DNA from: Bacilli bacterium
GTDB lineage: Bacteria; Bacillota_I; Bacilli_A; RF39; UBA660
Assembly: GCA_022791215.1 (NCBI GenBank)
Contig: JAAVYQ010000036.1
Location: 1 to 29,892 of the forward strand
DNA length: 29,892 nt
Direction: 5' to 3'
The notes under the pieces are model-generated. The model saw nothing but the letters and a program-made list of their open reading frames with translations. It was not told the origin of the DNA and searched no databases. The position numbers and the translations under genes were made by a program. Of this stretch, positions 2,392-7,206 are shown piece by piece (position 1 is the stretch's first letter; each line of letters starts with the position of its first letter).

Positions 2392-4509
2392 TTAAAGTTC
2401 AAACTGTGAATTATACAAATCGGCATAAAAGCCTTTCTTACTCATCAATTCCTCATGATTACCAGTCTCTATAATATTACCATCTTTCATAACTAAAATC
2501 AAATCAGCATTCTTAATAGTAGAAAGTCTATGTGCAATAATGAAAGACGTTCTACCTTCCATAAGTTTATCCATAGCATGTTGAACCAATTCCTCAGTTC
2601 TAGTATCGACATTACTAGTAGCCTCATCCAAAATCAAGAATGGAGCATCCTCTATCATACCACGAGCAATAGTAAGAAGTTGTCTTTGCCCTGCAGAAAC
2701 AGTATCATTTTGACTAATATCAGTATCAAATCCCTGAGGTAAAGTCTTAATAAAATGAGTAAGTCCTACAGTATCACAAACCTCATTAATCTTATCATCA
2801 CTAATATCAACTCTATTATAAACAATATTTTCCTTCACTGTACCGCTAAACAACCAAGTATCCTGAAGAACCATAGTAAATAGAGAATGAATATTCTCTC
2901 TAGAAAGTTCCTTAGTTGAAACTCCATCTATCAAAATATCACCTGAATTAATTTCATAAAACTTCATAAGCAAATTAACCATAGTAGTCTTCCCTGCTCC
3001 AGTTGGTCCCACAATAGCAATCTTTTGACCAGACGATGCCTTAGCGCTAAAATCATTAATAATAACTCTAGACTCATCATATCCAAACTTAACATTCTTA
3101 AATTCAATATTACCTTTAACATCAGCCTTATCTAACACTTTAACTATATTATGTTGATCATCCATTTCTTCCTCATCAAGAAATTCAAACACTCTCTCAC
3201 TAGCAGCAGCCGTACTTTGCAAACTATTCATAGCCTGAGCGATCTCTGCCAAAGGAGAAGTGAACAACCTAACATAAGTAATAAAAGCAACAATAACACC
3301 AAAAGTAATACTACCATTAATAGTAAGAAGAGCACCAACAATACAAACTGCTACATACCCAAAATTACCAATAAACATCATCATAGGTTGCATAATACCT
3401 GCTAAAAATTGACTCTTTCTATTAGCATCATAAACCTTTTTATTAATATCATCAAACTTTTCATTAGAAACAGCCTTACCATTATAAGCCTTAACCACTA
3501 ATAAACCAGAATAAACTTCCTCTATATGAGAATTAAGTTTTCCAAGTTCCTCTTGCCTAGCCCTAAAATATTTTTGAGACTTACTTAAAATAATAAACAT
3601 AAATACAAAACCAATCAAACTAGCCACAATAGCAGTAATTGCCATCAAATAATTAGTAACAAACATCATCAAAACAGTACCAAACAAAAGAGTAGTCGCA
3701 CTAACCAAAGTTGCTAAAGACTGATTCATACTTTGAGCAATAGTATCAACATCATTAGTAACCCTTGAAAGAACATCTCCAGTTTGATTCCTATCAAAAT
3801 ACTTTAAAGGTAGACGATTAATCTTAAAAGAAATTCTATTTCTAAGTTTTCTAGCAAAATTATTAGACACAACAGTCATAATAATACCTTGAAAGAAATT
3901 AAGCAAAGCACTGATCAAATATAAACATCCCAAAAATATAGAAATCTTCTTAACCCTATCTAAATTCATAAAAGGCTTAACTGCTTCTCTAATAGACTCA
4001 GGACATTCATCAATACTTTTATATAACTCATTAACATCGTTTTTATTTTGAAGACCACTTAAAACGCTCATAAACTTAAGTTGATCATCAGTACTAATAA
4101 CAACTTTTTCAACACTAAACTTTGGCAAAATAATTTCAAGCGTATTCTTAGAAAGACCCATCAAGTCATTTATAAATTCTTCACTAGACTTACTACTAGA
4201 ATTAGTCATAACTGTCAAAAACTCATTCTTTTCCAAATCATTCAATTTATAACTACTAATAACCTCATTAACATTAATATTAGCAAACTTATTATTAACA
4301 GTATTAACAATACTCTCAAATTTTTCTTGATTAACAACAAGCCCACTTGAAATAGTATCAGTTAATTTAGAAAGTTGATTAGGTGCGACAATAGAAAGAA
4401 CACTACCACTAACAGCAAAAACCAAAGCAATAAAAATCAAAATTCTAAAACTTCTAAGTTCAGTAAAGAGCCTTTTAATAGATTGTCCAAAATTCTTTGA
4501 CTGTTCCAT
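2392..4509 (-). CDS. Type IV ABC exporter subunit (TMD+NBD), TM288-like, with a large extracellular insertion
   Basis: Walker A GPTGAGKT, signature VSAGQ, Walker B ILDEA, H-loop AHR. Start moved to ATG 4509 (MEQSKNF), which has RBS AGAGGAGG. Confidence 0.92.
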   Translation of the reverse strand: MEQSKNFGQSIKRLFTELRSFRILIFIALVFAVSGSVLSIVAPNQLSKLTDTISSGLVVNQEKFESIVNTVNNKFANINVNEVISSYKLNDLEKNEFLTVMTNSSSKSSEEFINDLMGLSKNTLEIILPKFSVEKVVISTDDQLKFMSVLSGLQNKNDVNELYKSIDECPESIREAVKPFMNLDRVKKISIFLGCLYLISALLNFFQGIIMTVVSNNFARKLRNRISFKINRLPLKYFDRNQTGDVLSRVTNDVDTIAQSMNQSLATLVSATTLLFGTVLMMFVTNYLMAITAIVASLIGFVFMFIILSKSQKYFRARQEELGKLNSHIEEVYSGLLVVKAYNGKAVSNEKFDDINKKVYDANRKSQFLAGIMQPMMMFIGNFGYVAVCIVGALLTINGSITFGVIVAFITYVRLFTSPLAEIAQAMNSLQSTAAASERVFEFLDEEEMDDQHNIVKVLDKADVKGNIEFKNVKFGYDESRVIINDFSAKASSGQKIAIVGPTGAGKTTMVNLLMKFYEINSGDILIDGVSTKELSRENIHSLFTMVLQDTWLFSGTVKENIVYNRVDISDDKINEVCDTVGLTHFIKTLPQGFDTDISQNDTVSAGQRQLLTIARGMIEDAPFLILDEATSNVDTRTEELVQHAMDKLMEGRTSFIIAHRLSTIKNADLILVMKDGNIIETGNHEELMSKKGFYADLYNSQFEL

Positions 4510-4519
4510 GCCTCCTCTT

Positions 4520-6283
4520 CTATTCATTATTTAATTCCTCCTCTGAAAGTTGTGAAAGGGCTATTTGCTTATAAACCTCACAACTATTTAAAAGTTCTTT
4601 ATGTGTTCCCATACCGACACAATTCCCACTATCTAACACCAAAATCTTATCAGCATTCATAATAGTACCAATTCTTTGAGCAACTATCAAACAAGTAGCA
4701 TTCTTAGTATGTTTCTTAAGTTCCTTACGAAGAGTCAAATCAGTCTTATAATCAAGAGCAGAAAAACTATCATCAAAAATATAAATCTCTGGATCTCTTG
4801 CAATCGCACGAGCTATAGCCAATCTTTGCTTTTGACCACCTGACACATTATTACCACCTTGAGCAATATGAGCATCGTACTTTCCATCCATCTTTTCAAC
4901 AAAATCCGATCCTTGTGCTATCTTAACTGCCTTCTTAATATCATTTTCACTCTTATCCCCACGACCATTGTCACCATAAGCAACATTAAACTTTACAGTA
5001 CCATCAAACATAACTGCTTTTTGAGGGACATAACCAATCTTATTATGAAGAACATCTTGCTTATAATCCTTAACATTAACTCCATCAATCAAGATTTCAC
5101 CCTCAGTAACATCATAAAATCTAGGCACTAAATTAATAAGAGTACTCTTACCACTTCCAGTACTACCGATAAATGCAACTGTATCTCCCTTATTTGCCTT
5201 AAAAGAAATATTTTTAAGTAAACACTCTTCAGCATCTGGGTACTTAAAACTAACATTCTTAAACTCAACAACACCAACTAAACCAGTATCAACCTCATCA
5301 ACATCTCCATCCTTAATACTAATATCACTTTCCATAACTTCATTAATACGCTCAGCAGAAACTTGAGCCCTTGGAACCATCATAAAAATCATTGCTAACA
5401 TCAAAAACGACATAATAACTTGCATAGCATAAGAACTAAACACTACCATATCTCCGAACAAAATCAACTTATCAGCCATCAAAGCAGAATCAATAATATG
5501 AGCCCCAATAAAATAAATAGCCAAAGTCAAAAAATACATGATCAAATACATAATTGGAGACATAATACTAAAGGCTTTTTGATTAAACAACTGAGTATTA
5601 GTCAACTCATCATTAACATCACTAAACTTTTTCTCCTGATACTCTTCCGCATTAAAAGCACGAACAACCCTAATACCTGTAACATTTTCTCTAGTAATAC
5701 CATTAATCTTATCGATTAACTTTTGAACCTTTTTAAATCTAGGAAGAACAATAACCATAAGAGAAATCACTGTACTCAAAAGAACCAAAACAGCAACTGC
5801 CACAACTGCACTCCACTGCCAATTTTTATTCAAAATCTTAGTAATAGCCCACACAGCCGTAATAGGTGCTTTAATAATTAACTGTAATCCCATAGAAATA
5901 AGCATTTGAATTTGAGTAATATCATTAGTAGTTCTAGTAATTAAACTACTAGTAGAAAATTGCTTAACCTCATGAATGCCCAATTCCTCAACCTTACTAA
6001 ACAGTTTCTTTCTAACCTTCATAGAAAAATTAGCAGAAATATTAGAAGCAGTATACCCCACAATAATCGCAGAAGTCAAACTACCTAATGCACACAAAAG
6101 CATATATCCACCATTCAAAAGAATATCTTTAATACTGCTTCCTTCAGTTTGAACCAAAACAGTAATTTGTGACATATAATCAGGCAATCTCAAATCAAGC
6201 CAAACTTGTCCAACTATCAAAAAAATAACAAACAAAATTAACAAAACATCTTTCTTACTAAAATTCTTAAAAATCTTAAACAT
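4520..6283 (-). CDS. Type IV ABC exporter subunit (TMD+NBD), TM287-like degenerate partner
   Basis: Walker A GSTGSGKS, signature VSGGQ, degenerate Walker B IFDDS and switch VAQR. Start moved to ATG 6283 (MFKIFKNF), which has RBS AAGGAGGT. Confidence 0.92.
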   Translation of the reverse strand: MFKIFKNFSKKDVLLILFVIFLIVGQVWLDLRLPDYMSQITVLVQTEGSSIKDILLNGGYMLLCALGSLTSAIIVGYTASNISANFSMKVRKKLFSKVEELGIHEVKQFSTSSLITRTTNDITQIQMLISMGLQLIIKAPITAVWAITKILNKNWQWSAVVAVAVLVLLSTVISLMVIVLPRFKKVQKLIDKINGITRENVTGIRVVRAFNAEEYQEKKFSDVNDELTNTQLFNQKAFSIMSPIMYLIMYFLTLAIYFIGAHIIDSALMADKLILFGDMVVFSSYAMQVIMSFLMLAMIFMMVPRAQVSAERINEVMESDISIKDGDVDEVDTGLVGVVEFKNVSFKYPDAEECLLKNISFKANKGDTVAFIGSTGSGKSTLINLVPRFYDVTEGEILIDGVNVKDYKQDVLHNKIGYVPQKAVMFDGTVKFNVAYGDNGRGDKSENDIKKAVKIAQGSDFVEKMDGKYDAHIAQGGNNVSGGQKQRLAIARAIARDPEIYIFDDSFSALDYKTDLTLRKELKKHTKNATCLIVAQRIGTIMNADKILVLDSGNCVGMGTHKELLNSCEVYKQIALSQLSEEELNNE

Positions 6284-6516
6284 ATAATTTACCTCCTTGA
6301 AACTTACTATTAGATAATAACTTAAAATCAAATAACCAAAACTTATTACGAACACAAAAATTATATAGTTATATAAAAACAAAGTCAATAACTATTATAT
6401 TACAATTACTGTTATTTAGCACAAATTTTACAAAAATTTCACAAATGTAAAAGTCACGTAAAAACAACAAAGAAACTTGTAAAATTTTACGCTTTTATTT
6501 TTCATAAAAATAAATA

Positions 6517-6546
6517 AAAGCATTTTAGGCTACTTTTGTCGAATAA
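6517..6546 (+). promoter_or_regulatory. SigmaH-like promoter upstream of the peptide gene
   Basis: AAAGCATTT-N12-GTCGAATAA, compared with the B. subtilis sigmaH consensus RNAGGAWWW-N11/12-RNNGAATWW (one mismatch). Confidence 0.5.
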
Positions 6547-6590
6547 AGAAGTAGAGGGGAAAAACAAACCCTCTAGAAAGGAGAAGAAAA

Positions 6591-6707
6591 ATGAATAAAA
6601 GTGAATTACAAGCCGTACAAGGCGGCATGATATTTTTACCATTCAAAAACGTACTTACAAAAGCAGCAAGTATGGTCTACAAAGTAGTAAAAATGATCTT
6701 AGGCTAA
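6591..6707 (+). CDS. Double-glycine leader peptide precursor (bacteriocin/pheromone-like), 38 aa: MNKSELQAVQGG|MIFLPFKNVLTKAASMVYKVVKMILG
   Basis: Translated by hand; below the ORF-track cutoff. RBS AGAAAGGAG. Leader has E(-8), L(-7), V(-4), GG. Core has 4 Lys and no acidic residue. Confidence 0.8.
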   Translation: MNKSELQAVQGGMIFLPFKNVLTKAASMVYKVVKMILG

Positions 6708-6807
6708 AACTTAAAAAGCAGGTTCTTAAAAACATACATAAAAAAACATCATAATAAAAAAGGACCTACATCGTATATTTGAGAACCATAATTTTTAAGT
6801 CAAAAAT

Positions 6808-6838
6808 AAAAACTGTTATGACCCATAGCAGTTTTTTT
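6808..6838. terminator. Bidirectional intrinsic terminator between the peptide gene and dfx
   Basis: AAAAACTGTTATG-ACC-CATAGCAGTTTTTTT hairpin. Confidence 0.8.
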
Positions 6839-6846
6839 AGAATATT

Positions 6847-7206
6847 CTATAAATTCTTCCACAAAGAGTGTTTATTACAAAAAGCATAAACCTCTAAACC
6901 TTGTTCAAAAGGAACAACACACTCAGGCTTTTCACCTGGATTAAAACTAATCAGCCTAGAATTCTTATTACTAATAACAAGAATCCATTTAATATAATGA
7001 TCCACATCCATAGGATGTTCAACCTCACCTACTCTAATAAAAACTTGATCATCTTCGATTTGAAGAACAGGTCTATGCTTAACATCTCCGTCTCCACTCA
7101 TAACTAAAACTTCAGACAAAGGCTCACTACAACAAGACAAAAGTCTTTCATTACCTTCCAAAACAGTAACAATATTCCCACATTTATTACACATTAAAAT
7201 TCTCAT
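6847..7206 (-). CDS. dfx: Desulfoferrodoxin / 2Fe superoxide reductase
   Basis: Centre I CNKCGN...CC. Centre II KHRP, HPM...HYIKW, CNKH. Confidence 0.88.
   Translation of the reverse strand: MRILMCNKCGNIVTVLEGNERLLSCCSEPLSEVLVMSGDGDVKHRPVLQIEDDQVFIRVGEVEHPMDVDHYIKWILVISNKNSRLISFNPGEKPECVVPFEQGLEVYAFCNKHSLWKNL

Follow-up and report, generated by a model that had tools for sequence, protein, structure and literature searches.

A conserved 38-codon gene of uncultured mouse-gut Bacilli encodes a double-glycine peptide that is probably exported by a PCAT encoded elsewhere

The stretch of DNA analysed in this study (29,892 nucleotides, hereafter the window) carries a 38-codon open reading frame which was found to be a real, conserved gene, and the product of which we regard, with a probability of about 0.6, as a membrane-active, bacteriocin-like effector that is exported by a C39 exporter (PCAT) and made as a double-glycine precursor transcribed from a promoter module of the PCAT type. 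According to this proposal, the precursor would consist of a minimal 12-residue leader and a 26-residue cationic amphipathic core, and its gene would be transcribed alone, from one copy of a module, comprising promoter and 5' leader, which also drives an operon for a PCAT and a two-peptide bacteriocin. The PCAT, encoded elsewhere in the genome, would bind the leader, cut after Gly-Gly and export the core, and outside the cell the core would most likely be helical on membranes and act in a bacteriocin-like manner against competitors or sibling cells. We regard as established that the gene is genuine, that its leader and promoter are homologous to those of the PCAT operon, and that genomes with the orthologue have a PCAT; the cleavage, export, timing and membrane action of the peptide are the parts of this scheme that we infer. 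The peptide family is new and very small, and of a well-known kind, i.e., bacteriocin or signal peptide. The features of the locus are collected in Table 1.

Table 1. Positions of the peptide gene, its control elements and its neighbours in the window
Feature	Positions	Strand	Remarks
Two-subunit ABC exporter genes, 587 and 711 aa	2392-6283	-	Pfam ABC_membrane and ABC_tran only, no C39
Sigma-70-type promoter of the divergent ABC pair	6360-6388	-	TTGACT-17-TATAAT, 11 of 12 matches; conserved in G007 and G008
Three GTAAAA repeats	6447-6484	+	At 6447, 6458 and 6479; conserved in G007 and G008
Promoter module	6517-6545	+	AAAGCATTT (-35-like, 6517-6525); 13 nt; TCGAATA (-10-like, 6539-6545)
7-bp stem-loop in the 5' leader	6552-6575	+	Directly before the RBS
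RBS GAAAGGAG	6576-6583	+	Read directly; ends 7 nt 5' of the ATG
ORF, 38 codons	6591-6707	+	ATG start, TAA stop
Leader peptide, 12 codons, Gly-Gly end	6591-6626	+	Invariant residues, PCAT-substrate pattern
Core peptide, 26 residues, cationic amphipathic helix	6627-6704	+	Charge, hydrophobic moment, invariant residues
Stop codon TAA	6705-6707	+	Position identical in all variants; indels absent
Two-way terminator hairpin	6808-6840		13-bp stem between an A run and a T run; common to the convergent desulfoferrodoxin gene

The gene and its precursor peptide

The initial annotation had described a 38-residue open reading frame with a strong ribosome binding site (RBS) on the forward strand, and both coordinates and RBS proved exact. 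The conservation that it proposed to look for in related genomes was also found. Among 10 congeners, two (G007 and G008) carry orthologues of 38 residues with 50-53% identity to the peptide, and a profile search of 1.84 billion representative proteins matched two clusters, both of them orthologues, which gave two further variants from metagenomes at an identical locus. The five sequence variants are each 38 residues long and each located at the same place, between the ABC pair and the desulfoferrodoxin gene, and GAAAGGAG is kept in the orthologues. One of the metagenome variants comes from a strain of the same species with flanks 98.5% identical to the window, and its peptide gene shows 2 non-synonymous and 0 synonymous differences, too small a number to interpret. 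Between species the dN/dS is 0.2 to 0.5 and indels are absent. Frame +1 is the sole frame that is open in all four species, every other frame being stopped, and the variable columns number 27 at third codon positions in comparison to 16 and 15 at the other two; the G+C content is 27% to 33% in the window and 29% in the genome. The exact 38-residue protein is present, nameless, in a public protein collection (NCBI/ENA/Logan) and was therefore called by some pipeline. No paralogues of the peptide were found by tblastn in the source genome, a scan of metagenome contigs returned no homologues beyond the known variants, and positions 6100-7000 of the window matched no RNA family in Rfam.

The suggestion that the first 12 residues form a double-glycine leader was borne out at every position. 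The published consensus is L(-12)xxxE(-8)L(-7)xxxxG(-2)G(-1) (PMC6959990), and the corresponding residues of the peptide are Met(-12), which is the start Met itself, Glu(-8), Leu(-7), Val(-4) and Gly(-2)Gly(-1). All five variants have hydrophobic residues at -12 and -4 and keep Glu, Leu and Gly-Gly. Residues M1, E5, L6, Q10, G11 and G12 are invariant across three species, the Gly codons changing synonymously. A DNA pattern combining the RBS with a 12-residue leader gave one match in the source genome and three in each of G007 and G008, where the matches are two PCAT-linked peptides plus the orphan peptide studied here and nothing else, and one or two in G001, G003 and G005. In 80 other genera of the family any match at all was obtained in only 3 genomes, and the reversed pattern, used as control, had 0 matches in 81 genomes of the family. 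The leader match thus exceeds chance. Among family models, Pfam PF10439 (Bacteriocin_IIc) matched over the leader only, with 13.1 bits against a cut-off of 27.1, and neither Pfam PF03047 (ComC) nor NCBIfam produced a match to the peptide.

The description of the core as Cys-free, amphipathic and with a charge of about +4 also agrees with our calculations. The core contains four Lys, no acidic residue and no Cys, giving a charge of +4 in the source genome and +4 to +5 over the variants, and its best 18-residue window has a helical hydrophobic moment of 0.57, a value reached by 0.2% of shuffles; for the orthologues the range is 0.57-0.71. Eight core residues (M1, I2, P5, F6, T11, K12, Y18 and I24) do not vary among the five variants, and no GxxxG motif was found. 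In a profile comparison, the core aligned to the N-terminal half of the second PCAT-linked peptide with a score of 15.8, which was reached by none of 300 column shuffles (mean 7.1, maximum 14.2), while the hhalign probability for this pair was weak at 15% to 17%; no alignment was obtained with the first PCAT-linked peptide. On the basis of this likeness, the orphan may be a shortened copy of the second member of a two-peptide pair.

Promoter module and C39 exporter

The approximately 170 nt located 5' of the ORF are better conserved than the ORF itself in the source genome, G007 and G008, and the last 130 nt or so of them can be aligned to the sequence that precedes the PCAT gene of seven congeners. 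The elements common to both occur in one order: (T/C)GTAAA repeats one helical turn apart, AAAG(C/A)(G/A)TTT, exactly 13 variable nucleotides, TCG(T/A)ATA, and (T/A)AGTAAGTAG(A/G)GGG, with the 13-nt spacing being fixed in the module that precedes the PCAT gene of the congeners. Judged by this alignment, the upstream region of the ORF is homologous to the PCAT operon promoter. The core module pattern matched 6 times in G007, 8 times in G008, 3 times in G003 and 4 times in G005, while the reversed pattern controls gave 0 matches, and the source genome has a second module copy on contig C41. Since the module is common to the orphan and the PCAT operon, production of the peptide should coincide with that of its likely exporter, irrespective of the factor that reads the module. 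The (T/C)GTAAA repeats, spaced 11-12 bp, stand upstream of most module copies, PCAT operons included, and the three GTAAAA repeats of the window are a likely binding site for an activator, located 5' of the promoter. Positions 6389-6446, which separate the ABC promoter from these repeats, form a near-invariant block in three species, in which CACAAAT occurs twice, 20 bp apart.

The stem-loop of the 5' leader has a folding energy of -10.8 kcal/mol (z -3.6), and none of 200 shuffles was as stable. A hairpin is found at the same position in most module copies outside the PCAT operons, with a few compensatory changes, and in these copies the TAGAGGG stretch pairs into the hairpin directly 5' of a second RBS; the structure may play a role in mRNA stability. 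At the other end, the terminator hairpin lies between the peptide gene and the convergent gene, and the transcription unit thus comprises one gene; G007 has its own hairpin directly 3' of the peptide stop codon. The stretch after the stop codon differs among genomes: the source genome has about 100 extra nucleotides before the terminator (6708-6807) in comparison to G007 and G008, and in another variant (L041:310-1147) this position is occupied by an inserted PDDEXK_2 gene together with one more ORF. Genes similar to PDDEXK_2 are also seen behind module copies in G008 (contigs C13 and C17).

A C39 match above the Pfam cut-off was present in 8 of the 10 congeners, in 7 of them as a PCAT of about 688 residues, and both near-complete genomes with an orthologue of the peptide (G007 and G008) have one PCAT each, encoded elsewhere. 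The Cys16 and His94 motifs of the PCAT are intact. Wherever the sequence of such a locus extends beyond the PCAT gene, two small genes come directly after it, of which the first encodes a Gly-rich peptide of 42-47 residues with GxxxG motifs and a weak Pfam LcnG-beta match (E 0.004, under the cut-off) and the second a peptide of 51-53 residues. In eight congeners the PCAT-linked peptides have 12-residue leaders of the form M-x-x-x-E-L-x-x-(V/I)-x-G-G, the exception being the second peptide of G001 with 14 residues; as an example, a PCAT-linked leader reads MNKSELTQVVGG and that of the orphan MNKSELQAVQGG. No obvious immunity gene follows the PCAT-linked pair in G007 and G008. Each peptide of the pair after the PCAT gene (L027:10694-11014; matching sites L014, L015 and L028-L032) contains one Cys, located close to the C-terminus, and a disulfide between the two peptides is conceivable.

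A complex fold of the C39 domain and the orphan, both from G007, scored 0.82 in comparison to 0.00 for the best of 3 controls. Of 80 solved complexes 55 attained this mark, as did 3 of 110 mismatched pairs. The score expresses a likeness rather than a proof of binding, and because leader-C39 complexes have already been solved, it may reflect solved structures known to the prediction model. In the predicted complex, Gly-Gly of the docked leader is placed at the active site of the C39 domain. Leader residues 1, 3 and 6-12 and the first four core residues make contact with this domain, and the contacts of leader residues 6-12 involve C39 residues 13-17 and 91-95, the regions of the catalytic Cys and His.

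In the source genome, Pfam Peptidase_C39, the PCAT-linked peptides and a LytTR regulator were not found in its 55%-complete assembly, and all PCAT-flanking genes known from G007, among them the gene for ribosomal protein S16 (rpsP), were missing as well. The window is contig C56 of this 685-kb assembly, and a missing PCAT is uninformative there, because the assembly is 55% complete and the whole PCAT neighbourhood is unassembled. The initial annotation had seen neither a C39 transporter nor a histidine kinase or immunity gene in the window, and C39 domains, kinases and small immunity-like genes were likewise absent from it in our analysis. The annotation had also placed the C39 partner in trans, a proposal that is supported by the PCAT of G007 and G008, the similar 12-residue leaders, the shared promoter and the complex fold. 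As to the PCAT and LytTR/histidine kinase system that it suggested looking for in the genome, the PCAT is present in congeners, neither PCAT nor LytTR was found in the 55%-complete source genome, and the LytTR of the congeners is part of an agr-like locus.

Role of the mature peptide

The format of the peptide, compared with characterized ones, would fit a one-peptide bacteriocin and a pheromone of the plantaricin A type alike (PMC3769724), and we favour an effector, with export included in the probability given above, over a pure signal. Counting against a bacteriocin role is the fact that a self-toxic bacteriocin normally needs an adjacent immunity gene, and no such gene was found beside the ORF: there is no small ORF between the stop codon and the terminator, and the next gene is the convergent desulfoferrodoxin gene.

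The main alternative is that the mature peptide is a PCAT-exported pheromone like plantaricin A, BriC or CSP, with a kinase or other receptor elsewhere, and that it may feed back on the module. This we consider unlikely, although several observations speak for it. Plantaricin A also has a core of 26 residues that is cationic, amphipathic and free of Cys (PMC3769724), the gene stands alone without an immunity gene, the promoter is common to the exporter operon as is the case for autoinducers, the repeats upstream of the module suggest an activator, and the language-model neighbours of the peptide include BlpC and ComC clusters at 0.80-0.82, a lead at most. However, the domain search of the window showed no adjacent kinase or regulator, and the three-component pheromone layout of PlnA, ComC and BlpC, i.e., an adjacent kinase and LytTR regulator, was not found in the window. 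The genus has a single LytTR regulator, encoded in an agr-like locus that includes an AgrD of its own and has promoter repeats of another kind. Moreover, six congeners have the PCAT operon without the peptide, and the three of them that were searched (G001, G003 and G005) also have the module; the peptide is therefore not needed to switch the regulon on.

The agr-like quorum-sensing locus (L053:5964-8796 in G007, L054:2962-5709 in G008, and L055 and L056) consists of a LytTR regulator and a membrane kinase of about 390-420 residues and, divergent from them, an AgrB-like gene of about 205 codons and a 39-residue AgrD-like peptide ending in DEEEMPESLLK. The LytTR gene occurs in the same 8 of 10 congeners as the PCAT. 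Direct agr-like control of the module was considered and is unsupported, the agrB repeats (TGCAYKAAAT, 21-22 bp apart) differing from GTAAAA.

A second alternative concerns the precursor rather than its function: translation could start at the invariant Met13 and yield a leaderless 26-residue peptide, or the 38-residue product could remain uncut and intracellular, functioning as a small membrane protein or a toxin. Leaderless bacteriocins of comparable composition are known, and the residue after Gly-Gly is Met in each of the five variants but not in the PCAT-linked peptides. Against this, the strong RBS is positioned for Met1 and none is well spaced for Met13, the leader residues are kept through synonymous changes, and the leader is like that of the PCAT substrates of the same genus, all of which makes either version very unlikely.

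About equally improbable is the explanation that the peptide serves the neighbouring ABC pair, as cargo or small regulator, with the Gly-Gly leader being a mere look-alike. The divergent arrangement and the highly conserved intergenic region shared by both sides in all peptide-carrying genomes would suit such a link. The ABC pair, however, is a core gene set with orthologues in 9 of 10 congeners (67-87% identity; 86-87% in G007 and G008 and 67-73% in six further ones), and upstream of it the six peptide-less congeners have no peptide gene and no promoter module; in the other congeners no such peptide was seen beside the ABC pair or beside the 119-aa neighbour gene. The pair also has its own sigma-70 promoter and, as the initial annotation had stated of the adjacent exporter, no C39 domain, and leader and promoter connect the peptide to the PCAT operon instead. 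A functional link is thus unlikely, and the exporter is probably unrelated to the peptide. In the 711-aa subunit (2392-4527, reverse strand), the first membrane helix is followed by about 150 inserted residues, and the Pfam ABC_membrane match of this subunit begins only at residue 190, at profile position 38.

The weakest explanation, that the ORF is a chance open frame or a functionless decaying remnant, could appeal to its shortness and its restriction to a few close species, but has next to no probability in view of a same-length open frame in four diverged species, in a 29% G+C genome and with the other frames stopped, a dN/dS less than 0.5, and a conserved promoter, RBS and terminator.

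Known systems and a possible regulon

With the PCAT-exported effector as the preferred reading, several known systems offer themselves for comparison. Stand-alone double-glycine peptides that are exported in trans are known, e.g., BriC (PMC7595303). Like BriC and other stand-alone peptides of Streptococcus pneumoniae (PMC7595303), the orphan is encoded by a single small Gly-Gly gene away from the exporter, and it resembles BriC further in co-regulation with an exporter regulon and in trans export by a PCAT (ComAB or BlpAB for BriC), both probable here, and in having no adjacent receptor. The two differ in that they show no sequence similarity, the leader here has 12 residues, BriC is driven by ComE boxes in contrast to the alternative-sigma-type-looking promoter with GTAAAA repeats, and the host is not the pneumococcus but a group of uncultured, small-genome, spore-gene-bearing gut Bacilli. 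Plantaricin A of Lactobacillus plantarum C11 (PMC3769724) likewise combines a Gly-Gly leader with a 26-residue cationic amphipathic peptide, and both coexist and share a regulon with two-peptide bacteriocins; plantaricin A, which is both a pheromone and membrane-active, induces two of them (PMC3769724). Unlike the present gene, plnA is co-transcribed with a kinase and two regulators, no such genes being adjacent here, and again the sequences are not similar.

CibAB, a two-peptide bacteriocin that the pneumococcus induces in competence, is an example of Gly-Gly peptides used against siblings within a developmental programme (PMC7595303). Unlike the orphan, it has an immunity gene, cibC. No competence genes were seen among the module targets here. 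Control of CibAB lies with the alternative sigma factor ComX, which would parallel the cin-box-like or sigmaH-like promoter found before the PCAT, the two-peptide operon and the orphan. In relation to class IIb bacteriocins such as lactococcin G and the PCAT-linked pair of the congeners, the orphan has the same leader type as that pair, the same promoter, probably the same exporter and a weak core likeness, but it is a single gene without the GxxxG, the C-terminal half or the single Cys of both paired peptides. The two adjacent genes and GxxxG motifs that define class IIb are present in the congeners' PCAT-linked pair and absent from the orphan.

The genes found under the module are the PCAT operon, the orphan peptide, thioester-adhesin and transglutaminase-like proteins, and a few others. 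Among them, a protein of 359-381 residues has a signal peptide, to which the C41 copy of the source genome adds a C-terminal anchor. On contig C41 (L081), the minus strand from 8814 downwards reads the 381-aa protein, a 115-aa spoIIAA-like gene, a 217-aa sigma gene and spoVAC/D/E-like genes, the anchored protein thus preceding the spoIIAA-like, sigma and spoVA genes; a sigma gene is also located downstream of the 359-381-aa protein in G007 and G008. In C41 the sigma gene directly follows the spoIIAA-like gene with no spoIIAB-sized gene between them, and collagen-like ORFs with GxT repeats lie upstream. This cluster has the appearance of a reduced complement of sporulation genes, in a genome that measures about 1.2 Mb. 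Another module-driven protein, of 190 residues, has clear homologues only in G007 and G008, with one weak match in G005 (E 3e-4), and no Pfam match; as an immunity protein it was set aside as probably not one, since by eye it has no long hydrophobic stretch and sits before a recD2-like gene.

The module resembles the sigmaH consensus, RNAGGAWWW-N12-RNNGAATWW, and the streptococcal cin-box, TACGAATA. The source genome has a sigH-like gene after rlmB, with a score below the curated cut-offs, and the module was not found in the spo0A promoter; sigmaH is for these two reasons no more than a candidate reader of the module. Just after the sigH-like gene on contig C5 (L080:2771-4654) lies a 375-aa ORF, reverse transcriptase-like by eye, flanked by ORFs of 117 and 136 residues.

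A wider reading is that the orphan peptide, the PCAT and two-peptide operon, several surface proteins and the gene before the spoIIAA-like/sigma/spoVA cluster form one small regulon under a sigma factor of the sigmaH/ComX kind and a repeat-binding activator, in which Gly-Gly peptides would be released at a sporulation-like onset as sibling-killing or timing factors. We regard this as quite doubtful; if true, it would parallel pneumococcal fratricide or Bacillus cannibalism in gut Bacilli with reduced genomes. The promoter module itself delimits a small regulon that is directly testable.

The leader is of interest in its own right. A 2009 review quoted 14 residues as the minimum leader length (PMC3769724), which the 12-residue leader undercuts, and it is the same part of the leader as is bound in PCAT structures; it may thus represent a natural minimal export tag, usable in peptide secretion work. 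The common leader format and common promoter module tie the orphan to an exporter without gene adjacency, and for these little-known uncultured mouse-gut bacteria with genomes of about 1.2 Mb, the peptide would add a third exported member to what is apparently their complete double-glycine set.
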